This document shows, one piece after another, positions 2,425 to 45,546 of a stretch of 64,000 nt of DNA. The DNA is from an uncultured delta proteobacterium (GTDB lineage: Bacteria > Desulfobacterota > Desulfobacteria > Desulfobacterales > CAVQMW01), in NCBI GenBank assembly GCA_963713755.1, contig CAVQMW010000005.1, forward strand, positions 1,291,074-1,355,073, in the 5' to 3' direction. A program made the translations under genes and the position numbers. Numbering within the stretch: position 1 is the stretch's first letter; every line of letters begins with the position of its first letter. Below the pieces are notes generated by a model. It saw only the letters and a list, made by a program, of their open reading frames with translations, was not told the origin of the DNA and searched no databases.

Positions 2425-3864
2425 TCAATCCTGGGCAGGGTTGCCGCTGCCATTTTGGGCCTTGGCTGCCCGGGTGATCCAGCCGCCGCCCAGGGCTTTG
2501 TAGAGGCGCACATAGGCGTTGAGGTACTGCTGCTTGAGCTCCGAGGCCTCCAGCGCAACGGAAAAGTAGGCGCGCTGACTGTCGAGGACTTCTAGATAGC
2601 TGGTCACGCCTTGGTCGTAGCGCTCCGAAGAGAGTTGATTGGCACTTTGAGCCGCCTTGAGCTTGTTTTTAACCGCGGTGAGCTGGCTGCGGTAGGTCTC
2701 AATCTCCGTTAATCCGTCTTCGACTTCCCTGAAAGCGGTCAGCACGATGTTTTCATACTGGAGCAGGGCCTGGCGCGCGCGTTCTTCCTCGATCTCCACT
2801 CGCCGGCGGTTCTTTCCAAAATCCAGCAGCGGCGCCACCAGGCCCCCGCCCAGGGACCACACCTCGCCTTCGGAGGTAATGGAGGAGAGCTCACTGCTGG
2901 CCAGGCCCAGCACACCGGTCAGAGATATGGAAGGAAATCGTAGGGCCTCGGCCACACCGATGCGGGCGGTTTGCGCTTTGAGCTGGTAGAAAGCCTGGGC
3001 GATGTCCGGGCGGCGGGTGAGCAGATCGGCGGGCAGCCCCATGGGAATGTCCGGCGGGATGGGTTGCTGCGTTAGAGCGCTGCCGGTTCGGATCCCGCCG
3101 GGCAGTCGGCCCATGAGAATGCTCAGGGCGTTTTCCACCTTGGCGATGGACCGTTGGTAAAGGGGGATCGCACCGGCGGCGATCTCCTTTTGGATTTGGG
3201 CCTGATTGAGATCGATTTCGGGCACCGTGCCCTGGTCGAAGCGCTGTTGGATGATATCGAGGCTTTCCAGCCGGGAGTCGAGGGTCTCCCGGGCGATGAC
3301 CTCGCGCTGCTGAAAGTCAAGGAGTTGGTAGTAAGCGCTGACCACCTCGGAGATCAGGGTCAGCTGGACGGTATCCAGGGCGTATTGGGAAGCCATTAAG
3401 TCCGCCCTGGCCGCTTCATTGGCCCGGCTGAATTTGCCCCAGAAGTCAATCTCCCAATTGATCGTCGGCGCGATAAATGCTGTGGAATTGGTGTCGGGGG
3501 ACCGGGAGCCTCCGGAATAGTTACCCGTCATCGCTCCGACATCGAGATCGATGCGCGGCAAGCGGTCCGCTTCGGTGAAGCCCAGCGCTGCCCGGGCTTC
3601 CACTATCCGGCTGGCGGCGACCCCCAGGTCGCGGTTGTTGGCAAGGGCCTGGGTTACGATTTGATACAGATCGGGGTCCTGAAACAGGTTCCACCATTTC
3701 AGATTGAACTCGACCCCTTCCCCTGGCAATGCCGACCGGTAGGCCGCGGGGGTCTCTACCTCTGGCGGCCTAAAATCAGGCCCCAGAGTCGCACATCCGG
3801 AAACCAGGAGCATCAATAGCGCGGTTAACAGCGGCAGCCATTTCCCCATTCGGTTGGATTTCAT
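2425..3864 (-). CDS. RND efflux outer-membrane factor lipoprotein (NodT/OprM family)
   Basis: Lipobox LLMLLVSGC and OMF-type alpha/beta repeats. Start trimmed to ATG 3864 (MKSNRMGKW, GGGAGAG upstream), 19 nt after the RND stop. Confidence 0.9.
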   Translation of the reverse strand: MKSNRMGKWLPLLTALLMLLVSGCATLGPDFRPPEVETPAAYRSALPGEGVEFNLKWWNLFQDPDLYQIVTQALANNRDLGVAASRIVEARAALGFTEADRLPRIDLDVGAMTGNYSGGSRSPDTNSTAFIAPTINWEIDFWGKFSRANEAARADLMASQYALDTVQLTLISEVVSAYYQLLDFQQREVIARETLDSRLESLDIIQQRFDQGTVPEIDLNQAQIQKEIAAGAIPLYQRSIAKVENALSILMGRLPGGIRTGSALTQQPIPPDIPMGLPADLLTRRPDIAQAFYQLKAQTARIGVAEALRFPSISLTGVLGLASSELSSITSEGEVWSLGGGLVAPLLDFGKNRRRVEIEEERARQALLQYENIVLTAFREVEDGLTEIETYRSQLTAVKNKLKAAQSANQLSSERYDQGVTSYLEVLDSQRAYFSVALEASELKQQYLNAYVRLYKALGGGWITRAAKAQNGSGNPAQD

Positions 3865-3883
3865 CAGATGCTCTCCCGTTGGC

Positions 3884-6800
3884 TCAGGTCGGGTTGTTTG
3901 AAAGATCGCGTTTCTTTTCATAACCGGCGATTATGCCGACCAACACAAAAAGCATGGGGTAGAAGAAAACCCCCAGGCCGGTGGCCAGGGTCATGCCCCC
4001 CAAAAGGGCCACGCCCATGACCACCCGGGCTTCCGCACCGGCGCCGCTGGCCACCACCAGGGGCATCACTCCCAGGATGAAGGAAAAGGCGGTCATCAGG
4101 ATGGGCCGAAAGCGCAGTTGGGCCGCCTTGACGGCCGCATCGAAGAGGGAAAGCCCGTTTTTGAATTCGATGTTGGCGAACTCGACAATCAGGATGGCGT
4201 TTTTGGCGGCCATGGCGATGAGCATCACTAGGGCGATCTGGGCAAAGACGTTGAGCTCATAGCTGGGGCTGGTCAGACGCGCCAGGTAGAGGGCCAGAAA
4301 GGCACCGAAAATGGCAAAGGGCGTGCCCAGCAGAATACTGAAGGGCAGGGACCAGCTCTCATACTGGGCCGCCAGAATCAGAAAAACGAACACCAGGGAG
4401 AAGACAAACACGATAGCCCCACTGCCCGAGGTTTTCTTCTCCTGAAAGGACATGTTGCTCCAGGCGTAGCCCATCCCCTGGGGCAGCACGGTCGCAGCCA
4501 CCGCTTCCAGGGCGTCCAGGGCCTGAACCGAGGTGTAGCCGGGCGCCGGCCCCCCGGTGAGCTCGATGGCCCGGTAAAGATTGAAGCGGGTGGTGAAGTC
4601 CGGGCCGGCGATCTCCTTGACCGTGACAAAGGCGCTCAAGGGGACCTTTTGCCCTTCATCGTTCTTCACCGAAAAGAGGTTGATCTTCTCTTCGTTGATC
4701 CGGTACTCCGGCTCGGCCTGGATGTAGGCTTTGTAGAGTCGCCCGAAACGGTTGAAATCATTGATGTAGGAACCGCCGAGAAAGGCGCCCACGGTGGCGT
4801 AGATATCATTTAAGGCCACGCCCGCCTTGAGCACCTTGTCGCGGTTGATTTCCATGTAGCGCTGGGGCACGCTGGCCCGGAAGGTGGTGAAGATGGAACC
4901 GATTTCCGGTTGCTCCAGAGCGGCCTGGATGAATGCGGCGGTCTGGTCCGCCAAATACTGGGGTGTGTTGCCGGCCTGGTCCTGAATCATCAGGGTAAAA
5001 CCCGAACCGCTGCCCAGTCCGGGGATGGGCGGCGGCCCAAAGGCAAAGACCTGGGCTTCGCTGATCCTCCCATAAAAATCGCGGTTCAGGGCGGCCACCA
5101 GGTCGTTAGCGGTCTTTTCCCGCTGATCCCACTCTTTGAGGGAGACGAAAACGAAACCGGCGTTGGGGGACATGCTGCCGGAAATCAGGCTGAATCCAGT
5201 GGCGGCGGTAACGAAATCGACCTCCTCATGGGCCGTGATCAGCTCCTCCACGGTCTTGACCACCGCATCGGAGCGCTGCAAGGAGGCGGCGTCGGGCAGT
5301 TGGACGTTGACCATCAGATAGCCCATATCCTCGCTGGGCATGAAGCCGCCGGGCAGCAGCTTGCCCAACCCCCCCAGGCCCGCGGTCAGCACGACGATAA
5401 AGACCAGGCCCACGGCAATCTTGCGGGTTATGAAACGGACCGATCCGGCGTAGCCCGCGGTGATGGTGTCGAACAGCGCGTTGAAGCCCCGGAAAAAGAG
5501 CCCCAGGGGGCCGCGCAGTGGTTTGCGCTTGCGCAGCAAAAGGCCGCAGAGGGCCGGACTGAGGGTCAGGGCGTTGATGGAAGAAAACAGCACCGAGACC
5601 GCCACGGTGATGGCAAACTGCTGGTAGAGCCGGCCGGTGATGCCTCCCATGACGGCTACCGGGATGAAGACCGCCACCATCACCAGGGTCGTGGCGACGA
5701 TCGGTGCGGTCACCTCCTGCATGGCTGCCTCGGTGGCCGCTTTGGGCGCCATTCCTTTTTCGATGTTGACCTGCACCGCTTCCACCACCACGATGGCGTC
5801 GTCCACCACGATGCCGATGGCCAGCACCAAGCCCAGCAGGGAGAGCACGTTGACCGTAAAGCCAATCAGGGGAAAGACGATGAAGGCCCCGATGAGGGAG
5901 ACCGGGATGGCGATGGTGGGGATCAGCGCCGCGCGCCAATCCTGGATAAAGATGTAGACCACCAGAATCACCAAGGCCAGGGCGATGATCAGGGTTTCGA
6001 CGATTTCGTCAATGCCCGCGGTAATGGCCGTGGTGGTGTCCAGGGAGACATCGTAGCGCATGCTGTTGGGAAACGAGCTGGAAAGGTCCGCCATGGTGCG
6101 GTGCACCTCCTCGGCCAAGGTGACGGCGTTGGAGCCGGGGGCCTGGTAGAGGGCGATCATGGCGCAGGGCTTGCCGTTGAGACGGGTAAAGGCGTTGTAG
6201 GTTTCCACGCCCAACTCCACCCGGGCCACGTGTTTGATTTTGACCTGGGCGCCTTGATCGGTGGTGCGAATGACGATTTCGCCGAACTCTTGTTCGTTCT
6301 GCAGCCGGTCGGGCAGGCGTACGGTGTAGGTGAACTCCGTGCCGGGCGGGGCCGGTTCCGCACCGAATTTACCCCCCGGCACCACCACGCTCTGGGCCCG
6401 GATGGCCTCCACGATCTCCGGCACGCTGATGCCCAGATGGGCCAGGCGGTCGGGCTTGATCCAGATGCGCATGGAGTAGTCGCTGGCCCCGATGACGTTC
6501 ACGCTGCCGATGCCCTTGATGCGCGCCAGAATATCTTTGATATTGATCAGGGCGTAGTTGCCCAGAAACTGCTGATCGAAGCGCTCTTCGTCCGCCGTCA
6601 AAGAGATCAGCATCAAAATGTTGGGTAGGGATTTTTCGGTGGTCACCCCCAGGCGCTTGACCTCCTCGGGTAGTTTGGCCGTGGCCGCGGCTACCCGGTT
6701 CTGGGTGAAGACGGTGTTCATGTCGGGGTCGGTGCCCACCTCGAAGGAGACCTGGATGGCCATGGTGCCGTCATTGGCGTTGGTGGATTTCATATAGATC

Positions 6801-7024
6801 ATGTTGTCCACCCCGTTGATCTGCTGCTCCAGAGGGGTGGCCACCGACTGCTCCACACTCACCGCATTGGCGCCGGTATAAACTGCCCGCACCTGCACAA
6901 TGGGCGGTGTGATATCGGGGTACTGCTCCGTGGGCAGGCCGCTTAAGAACACCACACCGACGATGACCATAAATATGGCGATCACCATGGCGACAACGGG
7001 CCGATGAACAAAGAAATTTCCCAT
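3884..7024 (-). CDS. RND multidrug efflux permease (AcrB/HAE1 family)
   Basis: 1046 aa with the typical N-terminus MGNFFVHRPVVAMVIAIFMVIVG, a 12-TM layout and two large periplasmic loops. Confidence 0.95.
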   Translation of the reverse strand: MGNFFVHRPVVAMVIAIFMVIVGVVFLSGLPTEQYPDITPPIVQVRAVYTGANAVSVEQSVATPLEQQINGVDNMIYMKSTNANDGTMAIQVSFEVGTDPDMNTVFTQNRVAAATAKLPEEVKRLGVTTEKSLPNILMLISLTADEERFDQQFLGNYALINIKDILARIKGIGSVNVIGASDYSMRIWIKPDRLAHLGISVPEIVEAIRAQSVVVPGGKFGAEPAPPGTEFTYTVRLPDRLQNEQEFGEIVIRTTDQGAQVKIKHVARVELGVETYNAFTRLNGKPCAMIALYQAPGSNAVTLAEEVHRTMADLSSSFPNSMRYDVSLDTTTAITAGIDEIVETLIIALALVILVVYIFIQDWRAALIPTIAIPVSLIGAFIVFPLIGFTVNVLSLLGLVLAIGIVVDDAIVVVEAVQVNIEKGMAPKAATEAAMQEVTAPIVATTLVMVAVFIPVAVMGGITGRLYQQFAITVAVSVLFSSINALTLSPALCGLLLRKRKPLRGPLGLFFRGFNALFDTITAGYAGSVRFITRKIAVGLVFIVVLTAGLGGLGKLLPGGFMPSEDMGYLMVNVQLPDAASLQRSDAVVKTVEELITAHEEVDFVTAATGFSLISGSMSPNAGFVFVSLKEWDQREKTANDLVAALNRDFYGRISEAQVFAFGPPPIPGLGSGSGFTLMIQDQAGNTPQYLADQTAAFIQAALEQPEIGSIFTTFRASVPQRYMEINRDKVLKAGVALNDIYATVGAFLGGSYINDFNRFGRLYKAYIQAEPEYRINEEKINLFSVKNDEGQKVPLSAFVTVKEIAGPDFTTRFNLYRAIELTGGPAPGYTSVQALDALEAVAATVLPQGMGYAWSNMSFQEKKTSGSGAIVFVFSLVFVFLILAAQYESWSLPFSILLGTPFAIFGAFLALYLARLTSPSYELNVFAQIALVMLIAMAAKNAILIVEFANIEFKNGLSLFDAAVKAAQLRFRPILMTAFSFILGVMPLVVASGAGAEARVVMGVALLGGMTLATGLGVFFYPMLFVLVGIIAGYEKKRDLSNNPT

Positions 7025-7030
7025 GCTGGA

Positions 7031-8173
7031 CTAAATCTCGCTAAAGGCAGGCAGTTGAATCGCTTCGCTGACCGGGGTGACCTTGCCGTCGGCGCGAATC
7101 TTTTGCAGCCCTTCGTAGACCACCTGTTCACCGGGTTTGAGTCCCTCCCGGATCAGCCGGAAATTCTCAATGGCAGGCCCCACCCGGACCGGACGCTCTT
7201 CCACGCCGCCGTCCGGGGTCACCACATAGACGCTGTATTCTCCCTGAAGCTCGGTCAGGCAGCGCTGGGGGATCAGTATGCCGTTTTCGACCACTTCGGC
7301 CACGGCGCGGATTTTGGCGAACTGGCCTGGCCGCAGGAGTCTTTCCGGGTTGGGAAAGGAGGTTTGCACTCGGATGGCCCCGGTAGCGGGATCCACCTGC
7401 CGATCAATAAAATCAAACCGGCCCGTGTGGGCAAAGCGGCTGCCGTCGGCGAGGATCAGGGTGATATCCTCCTGGGGTTTGGCCTCAGTCTCTGTGGCGT
7501 AGCGTCGGGCCAGCTGCAGATACTGCTCCTCGGTCAAGAAAAACTGGACCCGGATGCTGTCAATCTGGGAGACAGTATTGAGAACCACGGTTCCCAGACT
7601 GCGGCCCACGAAATCTCCCACCTGGGATTCGGTTTGGCCGATGATTCCGGTGATGGGGGAGTAGATTTTGGTGTAGCCCAGCTGAATTTTTGCGGCCCGC
7701 AGATTGGCCTGGGCGGCCTCCACCGAGGCGACCGCCGCCTCCTGGCTGGCAATGGCGGCATCCAGATCGCTCTGGCTGACCGCCCGGCGCTGGGCCAGGG
7801 GGCGGATGCGGTTCAAATCGTTCTGGGCTTTGACCAGCATGGTTTTGGCTTCGGCCACGCGGCTCATCATGGCCGCCACTTCCGCCTCGTAGGGCTGACT
7901 TTCCAGCACATAGAGCAGGTCTCCCTGGATCACTTCCGAGCCCTCCTGGAAATGGGTCTCTTCCAAAAATCCTTCAACCCGCGCCCGAATGGCGATATCC
8001 TTGGCCCCTAAGACCTGTCCCACAAACTCCAGATGAAGGGGGACCTTTTGGGCCGCAGTTTGAACCACTTTTACCTGTGGCGGCGGGGGGGCTGGGGCCG
8101 CGGGATCCTCTGGGCGGCAGCCGGCGGCTGCCCCGGCCATCATCCACATGAGACAGATTAGTTTGATTTTCAT
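7031..8173 (-). CDS. RND efflux periplasmic adaptor (membrane fusion protein, AcrA/HlyD family)
   Basis: Lipoprotein signal MWMMAGAAAGC and MFP coiled-coil/barrel blocks. ATG 8173 is preferred over the track TTG at 8185. The stop is TAG at 7031-7033. Confidence 0.9.
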   Translation of the reverse strand: MKIKLICLMWMMAGAAAGCRPEDPAAPAPPPPQVKVVQTAAQKVPLHLEFVGQVLGAKDIAIRARVEGFLEETHFQEGSEVIQGDLLYVLESQPYEAEVAAMMSRVAEAKTMLVKAQNDLNRIRPLAQRRAVSQSDLDAAIASQEAAVASVEAAQANLRAAKIQLGYTKIYSPITGIIGQTESQVGDFVGRSLGTVVLNTVSQIDSIRVQFFLTEEQYLQLARRYATETEAKPQEDITLILADGSRFAHTGRFDFIDRQVDPATGAIRVQTSFPNPERLLRPGQFAKIRAVAEVVENGILIPQRCLTELQGEYSVYVVTPDGGVEERPVRVGPAIENFRLIREGLKPGEQVVYEGLQKIRADGKVTPVSEAIQLPAFSEI

Positions 8174-8473
8174 GGAATTTCTCAAGTTGAGTAATGGGTA
8201 GCGCAGGTTTCAAGGCCGGCCGGGTTCCACGGGGAGACGGTGTAGCGATTTGAAGGAGGAACCACTTGCCTTTTATAAGGAACAGGGGCTTACGACGCAA
8301 TGGAAACTGTAACCATGTGCTCTACTGAAAAGGCTTGCCCGTGCATTCACTGCCGGACTTACATAGGATGTTTCGAAGCGTGATGTCAATTTTACCCTTC
8401 ACCGGCAGCGATTCTCAGGGAAGGGGCAATGGCGCCGAACAGTGGTCCTTAGGGATTTGTAAATGAGGCCGGT

Positions 8474-8502
8474 TTGACAGGCAGTTATTAATTTCATATA
8501 TT
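8474..8502 (+). promoter_or_regulatory. sigma-70 type promoter for arsR
   Basis: TTGACA, 17 nt spacer, TATATT. It ends 25 nt upstream of the arsR ATG. Confidence 0.55.
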
Positions 8503-8526
8503 CGAATTTAACGATATGGAGGCGCC

Positions 8527-8871
8527 ATGCGAGATTTCATCAAGGTCATGAAAGCCCTCTCCGACCCCAACCGGGTCAAGATGCTCAAGCTGCTTCAGCG
8601 GCGGGTGCTGTGCGTGTGCGAGATCCAGGAAGCCCTGGGGCTGGCCCAGTCCACCGTCAGCAAGCACCTGAAGATCCTGGAGGAGGCTGGTTTGATCACC
8701 TTTCTCAAGGAGGGGCCCTGGGTCAATTACCGGTTAGCCGGCGGGGAAAGAAATCCCTATGTGGCCAATCTGCTGGGCAGTTTGCGGCATTGGCTGGAGG
8801 ATGATGCGGATGTGGCGGCCCTGGCGGCCAAACTGCCGCAGATCCATCGCGAAACCATCCGCGGCGGCTAA
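8527..8871 (+). CDS. ArsR/SmtB family metalloregulator
   Basis: ALSDPNRVKMLKLLQRRVLCVCEIQEALGLAQSTVSKHLKILEEAGLI is a winged HTH with the CVC metal/metalloid site. Confidence 0.9.
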   Translation: MRDFIKVMKALSDPNRVKMLKLLQRRVLCVCEIQEALGLAQSTVSKHLKILEEAGLITFLKEGPWVNYRLAGGERNPYVANLLGSLRHWLEDDADVAALAAKLPQIHRETIRGG

Positions 8872-8966
8872 TTTTTTTGGATTAACCATATCGTTATATT
8901 GCGATATAAGAATAAGTTGGCGTCTCGCGGGTCTTTCGCCCTCGGCCGCCGACCCGCGGAGCACAA

Positions 8967-10145
8967 ATGATGAAAGAGCGCAGCAAGCTGTTGTGGATTG
9001 TGGCTGTTTTTGTGGCTGCCTACTATGTTCCCTGGGGCCATCCTCGGATCCGCCAATCCGGGCTGGAAGCGTTCATGATGCTTCAGGAGTACGCCCGGGA
9101 GCATGTTCTCACCTGTTTGATACCCGCATTTTTCATTGCCGGGGCGATTGCCGTGTTCGTGTCCCAGGCATCGGTGCTCAAATATTTCGGGGCGCAAGCC
9201 AGTAAACTATTATCCTATTCGGTGGCCTCGGTTTCCGGAACCATTCTGGCGGTCTGCTCCTGCACGGTGCTGCCGCTGTTTGCCGGCATTTATACCCGGG
9301 GCGCGGGTATCGGGCCGGCCACGGCCTTTCTCTACTCCGGTCCAGCCATCAACGTGCTGGCTATCACCCTGACCGCTAAAATCCTGGGCTGGCAACTGGG
9401 TTTGGCGCGGGCCCTGGGCGCGGTCATTTTTGCCGTGATCACCGGCCTGCTGATGGCCCTGATCTTCCGCAAGGATGATGCAGCGCGCACCGCCGGGCAG
9501 ATCTACGTGCCGGAGGCCGAAGCCAAAGAGCGTACCCTTCTGCAGGATGTGTTGTACCTGCTCACCATGGTGTTGATCCTGGTGTTCGCCGCCTTTGCCA
9601 AGCCGGGCCCTGGCGCCACCGGCGTGTGGCCATTCATTTTTTTTGTCAAATGGTACGTCACCATCGCCTTGCTGATCATCCTGGGGTTGATGCTCAAGGC
9701 CTGGTTCACCAAGGATGAATGTAAAAACTGGGTGGAATCCACCTGGGGATTCATGAAACAGATCTTTCCCTTGCTGGCCGGGGGGGTGCTGGTGGCTGGA
9801 TTTATGCTGGGCCGCCCCGGTCATGCGGCCCTGATTCCCGAGCAGTGGATTGAGTCCCTTCTGGGGGGCAACTCCCTGGGGGCCAACCTGATCGCCGCCC
9901 TGGCCGGGGCCTTGATGTATTTCGCCACCCTGACCGAAGTACCCATCCTCCAGGGGCTGCTGGGGGCCGGTATGGGACAGGGGCCGGCCCTGGCGTTGCT
10001 GCTGGCCGGCCCGGCGCTCTCGCTGCCCAATATGCTGGTGATCGGCAGCGTCATGGGCGTGAAAAAAACAGCCACCTTTTGTGGGATCATCGTGGTTCTG
10101 TCGACCCTGGCCGGAATGCTTTACGGTGCGCTGTTCGTATATTGA
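8967..10145 (+). CDS. ArsP-like / UPF0718 family permease
   Basis: Polytopic membrane protein with the vicinal-Cys motif AVCSCTVLPLF typical of this permease family. It follows arsR. Confidence 0.8.
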   Translation: MMKERSKLLWIVAVFVAAYYVPWGHPRIRQSGLEAFMMLQEYAREHVLTCLIPAFFIAGAIAVFVSQASVLKYFGAQASKLLSYSVASVSGTILAVCSCTVLPLFAGIYTRGAGIGPATAFLYSGPAINVLAITLTAKILGWQLGLARALGAVIFAVITGLLMALIFRKDDAARTAGQIYVPEAEAKERTLLQDVLYLLTMVLILVFAAFAKPGPGATGVWPFIFFVKWYVTIALLIILGLMLKAWFTKDECKNWVESTWGFMKQIFPLLAGGVLVAGFMLGRPGHAALIPEQWIESLLGGNSLGANLIAALAGALMYFATLTEVPILQGLLGAGMGQGPALALLLAGPALSLPNMLVIGSVMGVKKTATFCGIIVVLSTLAGMLYGALFVY

Positions 10146-10160
10146 GAGCCTAAAGAAACC

Positions 10161-10236
10161 GTAGGGGCGGGCCTTGTGCCTGCCCGGATCCGGGCACCCA
10201 CAAGGGGTGCCCCTACACCTGCCCGGATCCGGGCGG
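10161..10236. repeat. REP-like palindromic element (GTAGGGGC...GCCCCTAC family)
   Basis: A 56-nt near-perfect hairpin, gtaggggcgggccttgtgcctgcccggatccgggcacccacaaggggtgcccctac. It is followed by a second partial copy of cctgcccggatccgggc. Confidence 0.7.
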
Positions 10237-10279: not shown

Positions 10280-10513
10280 ATGGAAATCAAAGTATTGGGT
10301 CCTGGCTGCACCAAATGCCAAAAGGCGGAACGAGTGGTCAAAGAAGCGGTTGCAGAGTCGGGCGTGGCCGCGGATGTGGAAAAGGTCACTGACGTGATGC
10401 AGATCGCCGGCTACGGGGTGTTCGGCACACCGGCGGTTGTTATTGATGGTGAAGTCAAATCGGTGGGTAAGATCCCCAGCAAGGAAGAGGTCAAATCCTG
10501 GCTGAAAACGTGA
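10280..10513 (+). CDS. small thioredoxin-fold protein (redox-active disulfide protein 2 type)
   Basis: 77 aa, MEIKVLGPGCTKCQ with a CxxC motif. AAGGAG Shine-Dalgarno upstream. This protein commonly partners ArsR and the ArsP-like permease. Confidence 0.8.
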   Translation: MEIKVLGPGCTKCQKAERVVKEAVAESGVAADVEKVTDVMQIAGYGVFGTPAVVIDGEVKSVGKIPSKEEVKSWLKT

Positions 10514-10572
10514 GCCCCATGAGGGCCAAAATCACGAAGCGATCTCATATCAAACCATCCCGGGTATCATTG

Positions 10573-10601
10573 TTGACAGGGGTCCTGCGACCTTGTACCC
10601 A
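10573..10601 (+). promoter_or_regulatory. possible promoter for pylT
   Basis: Perfect TTGACA, 17 nt spacer, then a weak -10 (TACCCA). It ends 12 nt before tRNA position 1. Confidence 0.3.
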
Positions 10602-10613
10602 GAAACACAGTGC

Positions 10614-10687
10614 GGGGGGTGGATCGCAATGGGATCGTGTGGGCTCTAAACCCACATAGCTCGGTGCAACACCGGGACTCCCCGCCA
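10614..10687 (+). tRNA. pylT: tRNA-Pyl (amber suppressor, anticodon CUA)
   Basis: GGGGGGT-G-GATC-GCAATGG-GATC-G-TGTGGG-CTCTAAA-CCCACA-TAG-CTCGG-TGCAACA-CCGGG-ACTCCCC-G-CCA. Features: 7-bp acceptor stem with one G-U; a single nt between acceptor and D stem; a short D arm; a 6-bp anticodon stem; CUA anticodon; a 3-nt variable loop; a T loop without the T-psi-C consensus; encoded CCA. It sits directly upstream of pylSc. Confidence 0.9.
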
Positions 10688-10722
10688 TCTTTTTGGTTTT
10701 CAACAGCAAGCTGGATCGCCCT

Positions 10723-11592
10723 ATGCCCACTCAAGCCGCCAGCAACCCGGAATCGATGTCCTGGTCCCAGGTTCAATTGCGCCGTCTCCGGGAGTTGAAT
10801 GCCGAGCCCCAGGTTTTGAAAAGGAAATTCATCCATGGCCCTCAGCGGGAGCAGGCTTTTCAGGAACTGGAAACGGCGCTGGTGAAGCAAGCCCGCCAGG
10901 GCCTGGAGGCCTTGCGCACCCAGGGGATGCGGCCCCGTCTGGTGCGTCTTGAGGGGCACCTGAGCCGCCTGCTGACGGATCTGGGTTTCGTCCAGGTGGC
11001 CACACCGATTTTAATGTCCCGGGGGCTGTTGGCCAAAATGACCATCGATGAGGCCCACCCGCTTTACGAGCAGGTGTTTTGGGTGGATGCCAAACGCTGC
11101 CTGCGGCCCATGCTGGCCCCGCATTTGTACTATATCCTCAAGGATTTGCTGCGCCTATGGCCCAAGCCGGTGAAGATTTTTGAGGTGGGTCCCTGCTTTC
11201 GCAAGGAGAGCGCCGGTTCCCAGCATGCCGAAGAATTCACCATGCTCAACCTTACCGAGTTCGGCTTGCCCGAGGACCAGCGCCATTCGCGCATTTCAGA
11301 GCTGGCCGACCGGATCGCCCATGCCGCGGGGCTTAAAGATTACCGGGTGGTTACGGAAAACTCGGCGGTGTACGGCGATACCCTGGACATCGAAGCCGGC
11401 GTCCGGCATCTGGAGGTGGGCTCGGCGGCCATGGGCCCCCATCCCCTGGATCGGCCCTGGCGGATCCGCGAGACCTGGATTGGAATCGGGTTCGGTCTGG
11501 AACGTCTGATTCTTGCGACAGAGGGCTATTCCCACCTGGCCATGGCCGGACGCAGCCTGGCCTATTTGGATGGGTTTCGCTTAAATCTATAG
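10723..11592 (+). CDS. pylSc: pyrrolysyl-tRNA synthetase, catalytic C-terminal subunit (bacterial split type)
   Basis: PylRS-specific blocks: WSQVQLRRLRELNA, LRPMLAPHLYYILKDL, KIFEVGPCFRKES, EEFTMLNL, SAVYGDTLDI, SAAMGPHPLD, WIGIGFGLERL and the C-terminus SLAYLDGFRLNL. ATG 10723 is preferred over the track TTG at 10693, which lies only 6 nt after the tRNA CCA. The stop is TAG followed immediately by TAA. Confidence 0.92.
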   Translation: MPTQAASNPESMSWSQVQLRRLRELNAEPQVLKRKFIHGPQREQAFQELETALVKQARQGLEALRTQGMRPRLVRLEGHLSRLLTDLGFVQVATPILMSRGLLAKMTIDEAHPLYEQVFWVDAKRCLRPMLAPHLYYILKDLLRLWPKPVKIFEVGPCFRKESAGSQHAEEFTMLNLTEFGLPEDQRHSRISELADRIAHAAGLKDYRVVTENSAVYGDTLDIEAGVRHLEVGSAAMGPHPLDRPWRIRETWIGIGFGLERLILATEGYSHLAMAGRSLAYLDGFRLNL

Positions 11593-11633
11593 TAAGCAAA
11601 AAAAATTCAGCCTTTAGCCCATCGATAGCGCCT

Positions 11634-12464
11634 ATGACCCGTCTTACTGTTGAAGATATCGGCACCATCGCGGCCGGCTTGAAAGATTACGACCGCGAGC
11701 TGCGAGCCAAAACCGGGCGCACCTTGCTGGGCGTGGCCTGCCATGCCGCCAGCATTCCCGCCAAAACCATCGCCCGGCGGCTGGGGAAAATCCGCTTGGC
11801 GGTGATTCCCATCAGCGCAGGAAAAGGCACCATCCCTGGTTTCAGCGAGTCGCTGGTCGCCATTGGTTCGCATCTGGGGCTCAACGCCTTTCTGGCTGGG
11901 GCCAAAGACGCCGCCGGGGTTGCCGAGGCGGTGGAGCGCAAGGCCAACTGGCTTTGGATGTCCGATGATGACCGGTTCGTGCTGGTGGATCTGATGCGCC
12001 GCCGGGTGGTGGACAACAGTGTCGCCACGGGGCGCGGGTTTGCCGCGGGACTCGACTTGATGGCCGGGGGGGTGGCCGGAAAGCCGGTGGCGGTGATCGG
12101 CTGCGGTCCCGTGGGGTTGAATGCGGCGCGCATGCTGATGGAGTTCAAGGCCCAGGTGACACTGCACGACATCCGCCGCCGGCAGGCCGCCGCCGCCGCC
12201 GCGGTCCTTGGGCAAGAGCAGGTCCAGATCGCCACGGATTTCAGCGAGGTGGTGGCGGGCCATGATTTGCTGGTGGATGCCACCAACATGGGCGCCCTGA
12301 TTCCGGCCATGGCCATCACCGCCTCCACCTTTATCGCCGCGCCGGGCATGCCCCTGGGGGTGACTTCCGAAGCTCGGGCGCGTCTCGAGGATCACCTGCT
12401 CCATGACCCCCTGCCCCTGGGCGCCGCCACCATGGTGGCCATGGCCCTGATTTCCGGCAAGTAG
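11634..12464 (+). CDS. pylD: pyrrolysine biosynthesis dehydrogenase PylD
   Basis: These blocks align with archaeal PylD as I recall it: LTVEDI, AVIPISAGKGTIPGFSESL, MSDDDRF, VAVIGCGPVG, APGMPLGVTSE, PLGAATM. TAG stop at 12462-12464. Confidence 0.85.
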   Translation: MTRLTVEDIGTIAAGLKDYDRELRAKTGRTLLGVACHAASIPAKTIARRLGKIRLAVIPISAGKGTIPGFSESLVAIGSHLGLNAFLAGAKDAAGVAEAVERKANWLWMSDDDRFVLVDLMRRRVVDNSVATGRGFAAGLDLMAGGVAGKPVAVIGCGPVGLNAARMLMEFKAQVTLHDIRRRQAAAAAAVLGQEQVQIATDFSEVVAGHDLLVDATNMGALIPAMAITASTFIAAPGMPLGVTSEARARLEDHLLHDPLPLGAATMVAMALISGK

Positions 12465-12467
12465 ACC

Positions 12468-12812
12468 ATGGCTGATACCACTCCCAAGCCCCAGCGCCAG
12501 CGCTTCTACCGTAAGCGGGTGGCGCTGCTGCTGCTCATCGACAAGATCAAGCTCTGGCCTTCCCGCCGGGGCCTGCTCCACGGCATCAAGCAGATCGAGA
12601 CCCTGGGCGAACAGGCGCGGATTACCACCCACTGCAACAAAACCTTCTTGGTCAACAACTCCCGCAACAGCCGCGCGGCCCGCTGGCTGCGCAACAAGTG
12701 GTACCAGGGGGTCTGCCCCCTCTGCCAGGTGCCGGACTGGAAGCTGGCCAAATATCAGGCCACCAAATTCAGGCGCCACTATGGGGCTTCGTTGGACAAG
12801 CCCGGGGACTGA
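12468..12812 (+). CDS. pylSn: PylRS N-terminal tRNA-binding domain protein
   Basis: 114 aa. FLVNNSRNSRAARWLRNKWYQGVCPLCQV parallels the archaeal PylRS N-terminal block [29 protein letters not shown]. The ATG lies 3 nt after the pylD TAG. Confidence 0.85.
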   Translation: MADTTPKPQRQRFYRKRVALLLLIDKIKLWPSRRGLLHGIKQIETLGEQARITTHCNKTFLVNNSRNSRAARWLRNKWYQGVCPLCQVPDWKLAKYQATKFRRHYGASLDKPGD

Positions 12813-36933: not shown

Positions 36934-38613
36934 TCATTTCGAAGCGCCTGTTTGGGGAATATGCGGCCTTACCACGGCGAGATACCAGATTCGTTCGGAT
37001 TTCTTGGGATCATAGGGAAAGGTATCCACCACCTCGATGAGGGCGTCTCTGTTGCCCAATAATGGTAAAAGGGACGTTTCCGGCGGGGTTTGGGTAAACA
37101 GGGCAAAGCTGCCCTGCTCCGGCCAGCCGCCGTCCGCTTCGGGCTGCCAGGGACGCACGATCCGCCCGACCTCCCAAATCTGCTTCGGGTTCATGGGGCC
37201 CAGGCTATATAAGGGCAAGTCTTTGATTTGGGGCAAGCTGCCACTGGCCGCCAGGCTGCGAAAATGGGGATTGCCGTGATCGTAGCGCGCGTAATAGGGC
37301 AAGGCGAAAACGGCCAGAAAACAGGAGAGCAGCCCCGGCATGACCACGCTCAGCCGCCAGTTCCGGCAGCGGATGTTGTAGAAGCTGATTCCCGCCAGAA
37401 AGATCAGCCCCGGCACCGCGATGGAAAGCCAGCTCTGATTGGAATCGAAACGATTCTGCCAATCCATCCAAAAACACTCGCCAGCGATGACCATGGCCAG
37501 CAGGCCCAAGAGCAGGTTGGTCCCCTTCACCAGCCGCAAATCCCCGGGGGTGGCACCCAATCGCCCGGCACGAAAAAGGTAGTCCTCCAGATAACCGATC
37601 AGGTAGGCCATGGGGACCATGAGCGGCAGGAGGTAGCGCTCTTTTTTTTCAGGCACCACCGAGAGCAGTACCAGCGCGGAAAGGCACCAGAAGAGCAAAA
37701 ATCGGTATTTGCCAACACCCTCCATCCGCGGGCGCATCCAGGGGACAATCAAAACCGCCACGGCAAAGGGTGCCCACAAGCCGGTATTTACAGGGAATGA
37801 AAGATAGTGCCAAACCGGCTCGATGTGGCGTCCCAGCCATGCTGAAGTCTCCTGCTGGGTGACCGTCAGGGAAAGATCGCCGGCCTGACTCAGCACGTAA
37901 AGGGGCCAGGGGGCCGCCACCAGGATTGCGGTCAGGACCATCAGCAGCACTCCCCACCCATTGGGCCTTTTCGGCCATCGTGCGGGTCGAAGGCCGTAGA
38001 CCAGGCCGCCGGCGATCAGATAGGGCAGCAGCATGCTGTAGAAGGGGACCGGCCCTTTGCTCATAAAGGCCAATCCAAACCCCACGCCGGCCAGCATAAA
38101 GTAACCCCAGGCGCGGCCGGAACTTCTGACGGCCAGGGTCAGCGCCCATATGCCGCCCAGCATGAAGCTGTGGCAGAAGATGTCCCAGCTGCCCCTGCGG
38201 CCCATGCGGATAAAGAGTTGGCAGGTGGCCAAGACAGCGGCGGCCAAAAATGCCGTACGGGGGGTTGTCAGCGTGCGTCCCAGACCGTAACAAAAAAGGA
38301 CCATCAAAGTTGCCGCCAGGGCCGCCGGCAACCGCAAGGCATTCAGATTGTCCAGCCCCCCCATGCGTGCGGAGAGGGCCGTCAACCAGGTGGGCAAGGG
38401 GGGTTTGGCAATCCGTGGTTCGCCGTTCAAGGTGGGAATCAACCAGTTGCCGCTCTCCACAACCTCCCGGGCGCTGATGAAGTTGCGCGCCTCCATGAGG
38501 GAAGGCGACAGCAGATCATTTTGGGTGAAAAGGGTCAGATAGCAAATCAGCGCCAACAGAAGGATTGCCGGCCAAACTCGGGGATAATCGTTGGGGGAGG
38601 GATTCAAGCTCAT
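36934..38613 (-). CDS. GT39-family (ArnT/PMT-like) polyprenyl-phosphate-dependent glycosyltransferase
   Basis: Polytopic, with PRIAKPPLPTWL and a C-terminal soluble domain. Start set to ATG 38613, which forms ATGA with the upstream stop. Confidence 0.8.
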   Translation of the reverse strand: MSLNPSPNDYPRVWPAILLLALICYLTLFTQNDLLSPSLMEARNFISAREVVESGNWLIPTLNGEPRIAKPPLPTWLTALSARMGGLDNLNALRLPAALAATLMVLFCYGLGRTLTTPRTAFLAAAVLATCQLFIRMGRRGSWDIFCHSFMLGGIWALTLAVRSSGRAWGYFMLAGVGFGLAFMSKGPVPFYSMLLPYLIAGGLVYGLRPARWPKRPNGWGVLLMVLTAILVAAPWPLYVLSQAGDLSLTVTQQETSAWLGRHIEPVWHYLSFPVNTGLWAPFAVAVLIVPWMRPRMEGVGKYRFLLFWCLSALVLLSVVPEKKERYLLPLMVPMAYLIGYLEDYLFRAGRLGATPGDLRLVKGTNLLLGLLAMVIAGECFWMDWQNRFDSNQSWLSIAVPGLIFLAGISFYNIRCRNWRLSVVMPGLLSCFLAVFALPYYARYDHGNPHFRSLAASGSLPQIKDLPLYSLGPMNPKQIWEVGRIVRPWQPEADGGWPEQGSFALFTQTPPETSLLPLLGNRDALIEVVDTFPYDPKKSERIWYLAVVRPHIPQTGASK

Positions 38614-40322
38614 GAACCTAAGAACTGGCTCAGGGTTTCGGCCTTCCAAAACCCGATTTGGCGCCCGCGAAAGGGTTGATGGTGCAAGGCGAGCTCTTGG
38701 GGAAAGTAGGGCTCTTCAGGGCGATGGATGAGCAGAAGGTAACCGCTGGGGTTGCCGTGAATCCACTCCATCATGGATTTCGCATCGGCCAGGGCGATGA
38801 GGGGTTGCGCCAAGCGCCCTGAAAAGTGGAACTGCTGCTGAAAGCGTTGGGGGTAAACGGCCACCGGGTATCCGTTTTTTTGGGCGACAGCGGCAAGCCG
38901 GGCACTTTGGGTAACGTCATATCCCTGATGCAGCGGCGTATGCAGGGCAAATTGCAGAGCCGTGAGCATAAGGGTCATGGCCAAAGCGTACTGCAGGGTT
39001 AAAGATTTAAAACTCTTTGCCGGCCGCAGAAGAAAATACCCGCCAATGCCCAAGGGAACCAGGATGGTCCAGGTCGGAAAATAGGCAAAGGGGGCGATAT
39101 CCGGATGGTGGGCTCCCCCAAGCCTGATTCCCAGCATGGCGGCGCCCATCAAGCCAAAGAGCATCCCATTGAGACGGCTCAGACCGATGGGGGGCTCTGC
39201 GACCATAGCGGCCAGCCTGCGTGCGGCAAGCAGGGCCAGGGGCGGAAGAATGGGGATCAGATAGTGGATCTGCTTGCCGCTGATCAGTGAGAGCCCCAAC
39301 AGGGAGAGGCCGGCCCAGATCAAGCAAAAGCGGGTGCCTGGATCACCGGCGAAGCGTTTCAGGTTGCACCATAGGGGCCACTGGCCGATCCAGGGCAGCA
39401 ACACAAGGGGCAGCAGCGGCAGATACCACCAGACCGGCTGGCGGTGGGCAAAAGAACGGGCCATGCGCCCGGCGGTTTGACCCCACAGAATGGCATCACC
39501 GTAGGCCTCTCCGCCAGCCCGGGCCGCGGGCAAGGCCCAGGCCAGGGCCAGGGCCGAAGCGCACAACAGGGCCAGAATAAGGCCGGCATACCACTTCGGC
39601 CAGCTGACGGGTGTCGTGGAGTTCAGCCACCAAGGTGCACTCAGCGCCAGCGGCACTATATAGACCAGGATCACCGGCCCCTTGGTCAGCATTCCCAAGC
39701 CCAGGGCGAGTGCGGCGAGCCCCCATCCCCGCCAAAGGCGCCGATCTTTGACCCACAGCATGCCCAGGGTTGCGCAAAGCACAAAGAAGGTCAGCGGCAT
39801 GTCGAACATGGTCAGAGTGCTGCTCACTGTCCAGAACGGCAGCGCAAGCAATACAAAGGGGACCAGCATCGATACGCCGGGCGCTTGGGGCCACAACCGG
39901 CGCGCCAGCCGGGCACTGAGAACCAGGTTGGCCAATCCGAACAGCGGGGCGACCATGCGGGCCGAGACTTCATTAACCCCGAAAAGCAGCCAAGATAGAT
40001 GGATAGACCAAAACAGCAGGGGCGGTTTATGGCTGTAGGGTACCCCGTTGCTGTGGGGAACCAGAAAATCCCCTTGCTGCCACATCTCCCAGGCGACGGA
40101 GAGATAGCGGGTCTCGTCGATGGGCATCAACGGGCGGCAATGGATGGCGCCGATCAGCATCAGGCCCCACAGCAGGAACCATCCCCGGCTCTGTAGCAGG
40201 GCCATCACCTGCTGATAGGCGCTTTGACGGCCGGGGTTCAAAGTGACGAAAATCTCTGGTGATCCCGGCTGAATCCAGGATTCCGATCTGGACACCGTCA
40301 TTTGCTGAAACACCTCTCTCAT
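38610..40322 (-). CDS. GT39-family (ArnT/PMT-like) glycosyltransferase, second copy
   Basis: DETRYLSVAWEMWQQGDFLVPHSNGVPYSHKPPLLFW is an ArnT-type motif. ATG 40205 is an alternative start. Confidence 0.85.
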   Translation of the reverse strand: MREVFQQMTVSRSESWIQPGSPEIFVTLNPGRQSAYQQVMALLQSRGWFLLWGLMLIGAIHCRPLMPIDETRYLSVAWEMWQQGDFLVPHSNGVPYSHKPPLLFWSIHLSWLLFGVNEVSARMVAPLFGLANLVLSARLARRLWPQAPGVSMLVPFVLLALPFWTVSSTLTMFDMPLTFFVLCATLGMLWVKDRRLWRGWGLAALALGLGMLTKGPVILVYIVPLALSAPWWLNSTTPVSWPKWYAGLILALLCASALALAWALPAARAGGEAYGDAILWGQTAGRMARSFAHRQPVWWYLPLLPLVLLPWIGQWPLWCNLKRFAGDPGTRFCLIWAGLSLLGLSLISGKQIHYLIPILPPLALLAARRLAAMVAEPPIGLSRLNGMLFGLMGAAMLGIRLGGAHHPDIAPFAYFPTWTILVPLGIGGYFLLRPAKSFKSLTLQYALAMTLMLTALQFALHTPLHQGYDVTQSARLAAVAQKNGYPVAVYPQRFQQQFHFSGRLAQPLIALADAKSMMEWIHGNPSGYLLLIHRPEEPYFPQELALHHQPFRGRQIGFWKAETLSQFLGS

Positions 40323-40867: not shown

Positions 40868-42277
40868 TCATGCAGGCTGGGGGAGTGCGACCGTGAAACA
40901 GCTTCCTTCTTCGATCTGGCTGGTAACGTTGATGGTGCCCTTCAAGGCATGGGCGATGGCACGGGCCAGGCTCAGCCCCAAGCCGCTTCCCGGTTTGGAG
41001 CGGCTCTGGTCGACCCGGTAGAAGCGGTCGAAAATGTGGGGTAATTCATCCGGGGGGATTCCGCAGCCGGTATCGGTCACGCTTATCAGCACGTGCTGGG
41101 GCGCGGCCTCGGCGCGTATGGTAACGGCGCCCCCTGAAGGGGTGTATTTGATGGCGTTGTCAATCAGATTGTACACCAGCCGCTGGAGCTGCGGCCGGTT
41201 GGATTGAACCACCACGCCTTCCGTCATCTGCAGGGTGATTTCAATCCCCTGTTCATGGGCCAGGGTTTCAAATAGGTCGCAGGCGCTCCGCAGTATCTGA
41301 TTGAGGTCAACTTGCTGCAAGTCGAATTTATTCACCCCGGCTTCGATTTCAGTCAAATCGAGCATGGTATTGATGATTCGGATCAAGCTGTCGCACTCTT
41401 CAATGGTATTTTCGGCTGCCTGGGCAGGGGTGACCGCCTGGGTGGTGCTGATCAGACTCATTTCGGCGATTCCGCGGATACGGGAGAGGGGGCTGCGCAG
41501 GTCGTGGGCGATATTTTCCGTCACCTCCTGCATCCGGTGGATGAGATCCTCGATTCGATCCAGCATCAGGTTAAAGGTGTCGGCAAGGTGCCGGATTTCG
41601 CGGCATTGGTTTGCGGTGGCCACTCTTTCTTGGAGGTTGCCCTGGGATATCTTTTGCGCGGTATGGGTGACCCGGGAGATGCCGGACAATGCCCGGCGCG
41701 CCATGAACAATCCGCTGACCCCGGCGGCCACAATGGAAACGCCGATGACCCACAAGAACAACTTCCGGAAAATTGCGAGATAGTGTTGGGCGGATTTCAT
41801 GGTTTGCCCATGCTGGAATATCAATCCGGGGCCGAGATGGGCCGCGATGACGCGGTCCCTGTATGGGCGTCCGGGGATATCCAAATTTTCGATAAGGGGC
41901 GGCCCGCCCGGAGTTCCGCCTGCCAAGTAGCGATCAATGGAAAAGGGGATCGGTCCCCAAGCGCCCATATCCGTGGATGCCAATAAGCGGCCCTGGGCGT
42001 CATACAGCCGATAAAAAACTTCTTTTGTATTTTCACCGAACCCTTCTTCCTTAATTTCGTTTACGACACCGGCCACGCCATCTTCATCAAAGGTATAAAC
42101 AAATTCTTTCAATTCTTCGTGAAGGGTGACATCCACGTTATCAAGGCTGATGGATGACAACTTAAAGTAGAACGCCGCAAAGGCGATAACCGAAAAAAGA
42201 AGCGCGATGGCGGCGTATCCCACGCTAAGGCGAAACAGGAGGGAATTAAGTATATTGTGATCGATCTTCAAAAACAT
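40868..42277 (-). CDS. sensor histidine kinase (TM-periplasmic-HAMP-HisKA-HATPase)
   Basis: H-box IAHDLRSPLSRI and G-boxes GSGLGLSLARAI. ATG 42277 is preferred over the track GTG at 42286. It overlaps the regulator gene's 3' end. Confidence 0.9.
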   Translation of the reverse strand: MFLKIDHNILNSLLFRLSVGYAAIALLFSVIAFAAFYFKLSSISLDNVDVTLHEELKEFVYTFDEDGVAGVVNEIKEEGFGENTKEVFYRLYDAQGRLLASTDMGAWGPIPFSIDRYLAGGTPGGPPLIENLDIPGRPYRDRVIAAHLGPGLIFQHGQTMKSAQHYLAIFRKLFLWVIGVSIVAAGVSGLFMARRALSGISRVTHTAQKISQGNLQERVATANQCREIRHLADTFNLMLDRIEDLIHRMQEVTENIAHDLRSPLSRIRGIAEMSLISTTQAVTPAQAAENTIEECDSLIRIINTMLDLTEIEAGVNKFDLQQVDLNQILRSACDLFETLAHEQGIEITLQMTEGVVVQSNRPQLQRLVYNLIDNAIKYTPSGGAVTIRAEAAPQHVLISVTDTGCGIPPDELPHIFDRFYRVDQSRSKPGSGLGLSLARAIAHALKGTINVTSQIEEGSCFTVALPQPA

Positions 42278-42932
42278 ATCCGACACCTCTGATGGTATGG
42301 ATCAATTTTGGAGTATAGTCTTTGTCGATTTTATCCCGCAGATAGGAGATCCGGGACTCAACCACATTGGTTTCCGGATTGAAATCGTACTCCCAGACAT
42401 TTTCCATGATCATGGTTTTGGAAACAATCTGGCCGCCGTTGCGCATCAAATAGACTAGCAGTTTGAATTCCAGGGGCTGCAGCTCAATGGCATTCTCTCC
42501 CCGGGTAGCTTTGCGGCGCGATAAATCAACTGTCAGGTTGGAAACCGTCAGGACAGAGGATTCAAGCCCGGGATTGGCTCTGCGCAACAAGGCTTTGAGG
42601 CGGGCCAGCAACTCGGCAAAGGAAAAAGGTTTGGTCAAATAGTCATCGGCACCGATCTCCAGGCCTTCGATGCGCTCATTCAGCGATCGCCGTGCACTGA
42701 GGATGAGTACCGGGGTTCGATCCTTCCGCGAGCGAATACTTTTAATCAAGGTCAAGCCATCCAATTTCGGCAACATGAGATCCACGATGGCGGCATCGTA
42801 TTTATAGTTCAAGGCCATATACAAGCCTGATTCACCATCGGCCAGATGATCCACCACGAATCCGGCTTCCTGCAGACCGTTTTTCACGAAAAACGCAATT
42901 TTCAGGTCATCCTCAACAAAAAGTATCTTCAT
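42246..42932 (-). CDS. OmpR-family response regulator
   Basis: MKILFVEDD..AAIVDLMLPKLDG, with the winged helix IHTIRGVGYVF. Confidence 0.92.
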   Translation of the reverse strand: MKILFVEDDLKIAFFVKNGLQEAGFVVDHLADGESGLYMALNYKYDAAIVDLMLPKLDGLTLIKSIRSRKDRTPVLILSARRSLNERIEGLEIGADDYLTKPFSFAELLARLKALLRRANPGLESSVLTVSNLTVDLSRRKATRGENAIELQPLEFKLLVYLMRNGGQIVSKTMIMENVWEYDFNPETNVVESRISYLRDKIDKDYTPKLIHTIRGVGYVFEDRSQYT

Positions 42933-44794: not shown

Positions 44795-45546
44795 GGGCAC
44801 GCCCCGGCTATCCGGCTCAATATCTCCCCGGCGCCGCCTTGGATCAGGTAATGGCTGGTGCCCTGGGTCAGGGGGGTGGCCTCGGGGTTGATTTCAATGA
44901 TTGTGGCGCCCGCGGCCCGGGCCATGGCGGGCAGGCTGGCGGCGGGCTGCACTACGGCCGAAGTGCCGATGACCAGCATCAGGTCGCAGGTGGCCACGAT
45001 CTCTTGGCAGCGTGCCAGAGGGGTGAAGGGGATCAGCTCTCCGAACAGCACGCAGTCCGGCCGCCATAACCCTCCGCAGGGGCAGCGCGGGGGCAGCTCG
45101 TCCAGGACCAATTCCCGGCTGGGCAGGGTCCGACCGCAGGAATCACAGCGCTGCCAGGCGAAGTTGCCGTGAAATTCGATCACATCCGTGTTGCCGGCGG
45201 CCTGGTGCAGGCCATCCACATTCTGGGTGATGACGGTTTTCAGCCGGCCCAGTTCTTCCAGGCGCGCCAACCCGAGATGGCCGGCGCTGGGGCGGGCCTG
45301 GTCCAGAACGGTTTTCATTTCTAGAAACAGAACCTGCCATACTTTCTTAGGGTTCCGCTGAAAGGCCTGAATGGTGGCGTATTCCATGGGGTCGATGCGT
45401 TCCCAGACGCCGCCTTTGCCGCGAAAGGGCGGAATGCCGCTTTCCGAGGAAATGCCCGCCCCGGTGAGAGCCACGGCGTGGCGGGCGCGGGTCAGGTCGC
45501 GAACCGCACGTTCAATGTTGTCTGTGGGAGGTACTGAAGAACTCAT
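44791..45546 (-). CDS. cobB: NAD-dependent protein deacylase (Sir2/CobB family)
   Basis: [22 protein letters not shown], the Zn ribbon CDSCG..CPCGG and the catalytic His in EFHGN. Start trimmed to ATG 45546. Confidence 0.9.

Follow-up and report, generated by a model that had tools for sequence, protein, structure and literature searches.

A divergent split-type pyrrolysine decoding cassette with pylD directly after pylSc in an uncultured Desulfobacterales bacterium

The canonical order of the bacterial genes for pyrrolysine (Pyl) is pylT-pylSc-pylB-pylC-pylD-pylSn. PylB is a radical-SAM mutase that turns lysine into 3-methylornithine, and PylC is an ATP-grasp ligase that joins this product to a second lysine. 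Here we describe a shorter cassette, pylT-pylSc-pylD-pylSn, in a 64,000-nucleotide stretch (the window) of contig CAVQMW010000005.1 from an uncultured delta proteobacterium. Its features are collected in Table 1. Use of Pyl in Deltaproteobacteria was published in 2007, with a report that the Delta-1 symbiont of Olavius carries pylBCD and eight methyltransferases that contain Pyl (PMC1976440). The ecology of deltaproteobacterial Pyl use was explored in 2021 (PMC8318568).

The cassette carries one of the three Pyl synthesis genes, and the lack of the other two is its one unusual trait. Only 41 bp separate pylSc from pylD, and neither pylB nor pylC lies between them. A preliminary description of this DNA had proposed the four genes in this order, and all four are present where it placed them. 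The three proteins pass their NCBIfam equivalog cut-offs. The catalytic subunit of pyrrolysyl-tRNA synthetase (PylRS), PylSc, scored 324.1 bits against TIGR02367 (cut-off 178.15). PylD scored 214.4 bits against TIGR03911 (cut-off 150.05) and also matched Pfam PylD_N (PF21455), while PylSn scored 127.3 bits against TIGR03912 (cut-off 51.15). The next-best non-Pyl family for PylSc was HisS with 32 bits, and rival class II aminoacyl-tRNA synthetase and dehydrogenase models reached about 30 bits or lower. All three proteins thus score to the Pyl profile hidden Markov models far above the generic synthetase and dehydrogenase models.

Structural matches gave the same identities. The closest solved structure to PylSc is PylSc of Desulfitobacterium hafniense (3DSQ/2ZNI, E = 5e-96), and that to PylD is PylD of M. 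barkeri (4J43/4Q39). PylSn matched the N-terminal domain of M. mazei PylRS (5UD5, E = 9.5e-12). Of the 107 columns with 95% or higher conservation among 117 relatives, PylSc keeps 105, and both differences are conservative. PylD keeps 51 of 56 conserved columns, with five conservative substitutions, and PylSn keeps 54 of 57. In the amino acid pocket of PylSc, the residues matching A302, L305, Y306, L309, R330, N346, Y384 and W417 of M. mazei are all kept in the window and in its two closest relatives (proteins P0002 and P0003). At the position matching C348, the window shares T with D. hafniense. The M. mazei sequence and pocket numbering used for this comparison are those we take to be correct, and were checked for internal consistency only.

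The ATG start of pylSc lies 35 nt downstream of pylT, and the 289-residue product is identical to a database protein (P0001). A TTG start at 10693 was also considered, but an exact look-up of that protein found nothing, whereas the ATG form matches the database protein. pylSn starts 3 nt past the TAG of pylD and shares its frame (TAG-ACC-ATG, 12462-12470). Read-through of this UAG would yield a PylD-PylSn fusion. The arrangement is probably due to chance, and the frame relation is not kept in the locus of the closest relative (L009). No frameshift or internal stop interrupts pylSc, pylD or pylSn, and the three genes are intact. At the level of sequence, then, identity and intactness mark pylT-pylSc-pylD-pylSn as a genuine bacterial gene set for reading UAG as pyrrolysine.

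ARAGORN found a single tRNA in the window, tRNA-Pyl, with the anticodon cta at position 33. The gene is 74 nt long. As read from the sequence, its acceptor stem has 7 bp (G1-C70 to U7-A64) and is joined to the D stem by the single linker base G8. The D stem has four Watson-Crick pairs (9-12/20-23), all of them invariant. The D loop has 5 nt when G13-N19 is counted as part of the stem, or 7 nt by Watson-Crick pairs only. The anticodon stem has 6 bp (25-30/38-43, from U25-A43 to G30-C38) and closes a CUCUAAA loop. A variable loop of 3 nt (U44 A45 G46) follows, and both this loop and the G8 linker are fixed in length in an alignment of 26 sequences. The T stem has 5 bp. Its loop, UGCAACA, is near-invariant in homologues and has no T-psi-C sequence (no UUC). 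The discriminator base is G, followed by an encoded CCA. The window tRNA has GG at 18-19, and the same columns vary freely among homologous tRNAs. The features that define tRNA-Pyl, including the 6-bp anticodon stem, have been listed (PMC3941956).

With RNAfold, the cloverleaf was the minimum-free-energy fold (-36 kcal/mol, z = -2.7). We gathered 56 distinct tRNA-Pyl sequences from related loci, aligned the 26 distinct 74-mers and counted pairs for a 7/4/6/5 cloverleaf. Paired bases filled 99.1% of the cells, and compensatory double changes occurred in 8 of the 22 pairs. None of 500 shuffles reached these values, and slid controls paired at 36-59% only. Four of the six pairs of the anticodon stem showed compensatory changes, and the extra pair 25-43 is UA in 13 sequences and CG in 10. 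The cloverleaf, including its 6-bp anticodon stem, is therefore backed by compensatory changes. The structural oddities on which the preliminary description based its call (CUA anticodon, 6-bp anticodon stem, 3-nt variable loop, 1-nt linker and lack of T-psi-C) are borne out by ARAGORN, by the sequence and by covariation. A search of positions 10500-10800 against Rfam, generic tRNA model included, gave no tRNA match at the gathering threshold or at E <= 10, which suggests that this tRNA is very atypical.

A putative promoter precedes pylT, and its TTGACA box begins where the preliminary description had set the start of the cassette (10573). The box is kept in diverged relatives: the window, L009 and the locus of the second relative (L015) all have CTTGACAG and the TA.C of the -10 box without change, and the sequences around them cannot be aligned. 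This conservation suggests that pylT may have its own promoter. A consensus promoter scan made no call on the plus strand, because the -10 box is weak. No terminator was found by a terminator scan.

The order pylT-pylSc-pylD-pylSn was found in four independent assemblies of the source organism (L001-L004). In the two closest relatives, whose PylSc proteins are 76% (P0002, L009/L010) and 73% (P0003, L015) identical to that of the window, pylT-pylSc is likewise followed directly by pylD. Therefore the layout is not an assembly artefact. Between the three lineages the synonymous divergence (dS) is 0.8-2.0 and thus saturated. The ratio of nonsynonymous to synonymous divergence (dN/dS) for these lineages, which share the pylSc-pylD junction, is 0.11-0.14 for pylSc and 0.14-0.26 for pylD. 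Because the layout is common to diverged lineages and dN/dS is low, the arrangement is old, and pylSc and pylD are under purifying selection.

In L009 (2159-2371), pylSn is intact for about 38 residues, after which it runs on as the C-terminal part of ribosomal protein S15 (rpsO). Either a deletion and fusion really took place, or the metagenome contig is a chimera. The clade members also differ in the gene that precedes the cassette: a thioredoxin-like gene in the window (10280-10513), another plus-strand open reading frame (ORF) in L009 (1-255) and a minus-strand gene in L015 (3-497). The cassette occupies a different neighbourhood in each clade member. We saw no sign of horizontal transfer, in that neither a compositional break nor flanking repeats were found around the cassette. 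The genomic context had been called notable. It is only mildly so. Relatives usually adjoin TAG-interrupted mttB or mtbB genes, unlike this cassette, and the neighbourhood is not constant within the clade.

Glutamine synthetase (GlnA) places the host in Desulfobacterales, as the window protein shares 83-86% identity with GlnA of Desulfosarcina, Desulfobacteraceae and Desulfobacterales metagenome-assembled genomes (MAGs). With PylSc as the query of a homology search, 4,630 proteins matched at E <= 1e-10; the top matches listed were PylSc, several of them labelled as from Deltaproteobacteria or Desulfobacterales. A pattern scan of the GTDB species-representative genomes found at least 569 PylSc-encoding stretches. 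The best 80 of these are mostly from Desulfobacterota (Desulfobacterales and Desulfosarcina MAGs), and the rest of the 80 include bins labelled Aminicenantes, Gemmatimonadota, Omnitrophota, Myxococcota and others. The earlier statement that Pyl systems are rare in Bacteria and very sparse outside Firmicutes is thus outdated.

Among the matches listed, PylSc of the window is at most 62-63% identical to PylSc of GTDB species genomes. In a neighbor-joining tree, PylSc of the window, P0002 and P0003 form one clade with 100% bootstrap, on a long and deep branch. This clade is sister to the main, Desulfobacterota-dominated PylSc radiation, with 71% support for both together. The cassette is a divergent new PylSc lineage of Pyl systems that are already known and commonly seen. 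Its cluster layout is new and unsurprising.

To compare layouts, we mapped PylSc, PylB, PylC, PylD, PylSn and MttB by tblastn on about 80 related GTDB loci with flanks of up to 10 kb. In most related loci checked, pylT lies upstream of pylSc. The canonical Sc-B-C-D-Sn order follows pylT in the majority of the loci. Sc-C-D-Sn follows it in about 12 loci, Sc-Sn only in about 10, including the Olavius Delta-1 symbiont (L156), Sc-B-C-Sn in two and Sc-D in one, that of Desulfococcaceae HSG9 (L121). Other loci are rearranged in place, among them L130, where pylB precedes pylSc, and L171, where the C-D-Sn block is inverted. Among these loci from GTDB species, Sc-D-Sn was not seen outside the clade of the window. 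Many of them are flanked by TAG-interrupted mttB or mtbB genes, and the window cassette is not.

A scan for PylB located the "missing" genes on other contigs in three genomes with fragmented clusters. In HSG9, pylB lies on L175 (2973-5068), directly after a URO-D-family (MtbA-like) gene. In Deltaproteobacteria Ww484 it lies on L231, and in Aminicenantes RS_8_31 a pylB-pylC pair lies on L252. There is thus good precedent for a complete set of pyl genes that is dispersed in the genome. The Gemmatimonadota MAG JBDHHK01 has two pylSc loci (L158 and L168), one with Sc-C-D-Sn and the other with Sc-B on a short contig. These could be two copies or a strain mixture in the bin.

We consider it likely that the cassette is the decoding half, plus the last synthesis step, of a functional split-type Pyl system whose pylB, pylC and UAG-containing target genes would lie elsewhere in the Desulfobacterales genome. 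In such a system, pylT would be transcribed from its own conserved promoter, and PylSc, aided by the separate tRNA-binding subunit PylSn, would charge tRNA-Pyl(CUA) with pyrrolysine. The charged tRNA would compete with release factor 1 at UAG, so that Pyl would be placed at in-frame UAG codons of methylamine methyltransferase genes. PylD would oxidise 3-methylornithyl-N6-lysine to pyrrolysine and so complete the synthesis from the PylC product. To our knowledge, PylD has no role besides finishing Pyl. Since pylD is maintained, a supply of the PylC product is implied.

Several results weigh against this. NCBIfam scans of the about 45 window ORFs gave no match to PylB, PylC, MttB, MtbB, MtmB or a corrinoid protein. 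A tblastn search of the 64 kb down to E < 1, in which two PylB, two PylC and two MttB proteins, one MtbB and one corrinoid protein served as queries, returned only noise (E > 0.3), and the PylB and PylC queries had no hit at E < 0.5. Scanning the window for coding ORFs bridged by an in-frame TAG revealed no Pyl-type target, and a Pyl-dependent target gene for the source organism was not found within the 64 kb. Neither single-protein nor alignment scans found a member of the window clade among GTDB species representatives, the best of the matches listed being 62% identical. In addition, TAG is a frequent stop and ends 13 of 45 window genes (29%), pylSc and pylD included. Efficient constitutive suppression of UAG would be costly, and the window shows no means of avoiding it. 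Because TAG ends 29% of the window genes, UAG must stay mainly a stop, and Pyl insertion has to compete with termination, as has also been remarked for D. hafniense (PMC1976440). The preliminary description had taken the cassette to imply that this organism can decode UAG as the 22nd amino acid. This depends on pylB and pylC being present outside the window, a gap that had passed unremarked.

Between 10723 and 20867, TAG is the stop of seven genes in a row of eight (pylSc, pylD, FGGY kinase, RdgB, PEPCK, AmpG and DUF6178), the exception being pylSn. Outside this interval, 6 of 37 window genes do so. This pattern was noticed only after the fact and could have arisen by chance.

The absence of pylB and pylC from the cluster and from the 64 kb could also mean that the lineage has lost both genes and depends on Pyl or 3-methylornithyl-lysine from neighbouring organisms. 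The two genes are missing after pylSc in three diverged lineages, and Pyl-encoding Desulfobacterales abound in the complex sediment-type or metagenome communities from which the organisms derive; both points would suit such a dependence. We nevertheless regard it as unlikely. We know of no uptake route or cross-feeding for Pyl or its precursor. Imported free Pyl would make PylD dispensable, yet pylD is under purifying selection. Moreover, wherever other genomes with a fragmented cluster could be checked, the missing genes turned up elsewhere. An incomplete cluster might also be a non-functional remnant left by a deletion of pylBC, and the apparently truncated pylSn fused to an rpsO fragment in L009 would fit this. 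A remnant is very improbable, as no frameshift or internal stop disrupts the genes, dN/dS lies at 0.11-0.26 while dS is saturated, almost all conserved columns are kept and both the promoter box and the tRNA are conserved.

The long, deep PylSc branch (at most 63% identity to others, 100% bootstrap), together with the unusual gene complement, raises the question of whether PylD, PylSc or both now act on another substrate, with a Pyl analogue made by a route other than PylB and PylC and UAG read as a non-canonical residue. We give this little credence. Every pocket residue examined fits either the family consensus or D. hafniense PylSc, the five PylD changes at conserved columns are conservative, and no candidate replacement ligase or mutase lies beside the cassette. 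Both a repurposed system and a relic are made less likely by the conserved pocket and the low dN/dS. It is likewise quite improbable, in our judgement, that the clade has truly lost pylB and pylC, keeps pylT, PylRS and PylD under selection, and either finishes Pyl from a precursor supplied by the community or makes a Pyl-like residue by a non-canonical route. If pylBC were truly lost, the 22nd amino acid would be cross-fed or altered, and the lineage would rely on an external precursor or a non-canonical route. A functional system with its remaining genes dispersed in the genome thus stays our preferred explanation.

The cassette adds a divergent PylRS/tRNA-Pyl pair, and such pairs have practical value as candidates for mutually orthogonal pairs in genetic code expansion. 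Also, the pyl cassette is often fragmented in Desulfobacterota, and automated calls of Pyl capability that rely on the cluster would misjudge such MAGs.

Table 1. Positions of the pyl cassette and of other features in the 64-kb window.
Feature	Position	Strand	Evidence or remark
Putative sigma-70-type pylT promoter	10573-10601	+	-35 box TTGACA (10573-10578); 17-nt spacer; weak -10 box TACCCA (10596-10601)
pylT, amber-suppressor tRNA-Pyl (anticodon CUA), encoded CCA end	10614-10687	+	ARAGORN, fold, covariation
pylSc, pyrrolysyl-tRNA synthetase catalytic subunit, 289 aa	10723-11592	+	TIGR02367; tandem stop TAG-TAA (11590-11595)
pylD, 3-methylornithyl-N6-lysine dehydrogenase (last Pyl synthesis step), 276 aa	11634-12464	+	TIGR03911, PylD_N; stop TAG
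pylSn, N-terminal tRNA-binding subunit of PylRS, 114 aa	12468-12812	+	TIGR03912
RACo/AcsV-like corrinoid reductive activase	43247-44800	-	Pfam RACo_C_ter, Raco_middle, RACo_linker
RND efflux operon, outer-membrane factor	2425-3921	-	
RND efflux operon, pump	3884-7024	-	
RND efflux operon, membrane fusion protein	7031-8185	-	Stop TAG, in frame with the pump gene
27-nt inverted repeat	8493-8519/8886-8912		Brackets arsR
56-nt palindrome and exact 17-nt direct repeat	10161-10234		Between ArsP-type permease and thioredoxin-like genes
Two tandem, overlapping ArnT-like membrane protein genes	36934-40322	-	Glycosyltransferase family 39-type
Heavy-metal-type two-component system	40868-42932		Adjoins the ArnT-like pair

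Other features of the window are listed in the lower part of Table 1. The corrinoid activase scores under the NCBIfam cut-offs for AcsV and RamA and adjoins no methyltransferase gene. Its presence points to corrinoid-dependent methyl transfer in the source organism. The in-frame TAG between the membrane fusion protein and pump genes of the RND operon was considered as a case of read-through. It was treated as chance and is not conserved in relatives (L009). The inverted repeat around arsR could represent operator sites.

Compared with described systems, the window cassette resembles the D. hafniense cluster in its split PylRS, in the position of pylT directly upstream of pylSc, in pylSn being last and in the architecture of the tRNA. 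PylSc of D. hafniense is 52% identical to that of the window and has an identical pocket, including T at the position of M. mazei C348. In D. hafniense, however, pylB and pylC lie between pylSc and pylD, where the window has only the 41-bp spacer, and the host is a Firmicute rather than a member of Desulfobacterales.

The clusters of Desulfobacterota MAGs and of the Olavius algarvensis Delta-1 symbiont (PMC1976440; PMC8318568) share the host order with the window and belong to the same PylSc radiation, to which the window clade is sister. Their tRNAs are near-identical to the window pylT, and fragmented pyl clusters are common in the group. They differ in that none of the about 80 loci has the Sc-D-Sn order and in that their PylSc proteins are at most 63% identical to that of the window. 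Many of the Desulfobacterota loci adjoin TAG-interrupted mttB or mtbB genes, in contrast to the window locus.

The HSG9 locus (L121) is alike in that pylSc is followed directly by pylD, without pylB or pylC. It differs in having no pylSn nearby and in carrying a reverse-transcriptase ORF (RVT_1, group II intron-like) between pylT and pylSc (6997-10001). Its PylSc and PylD are only 58% and 42% identical to those of the window, and it groups with canonical-order loci in the tree. Therefore, the Sc-D arrangement of HSG9 has an origin independent of that in the window clade.

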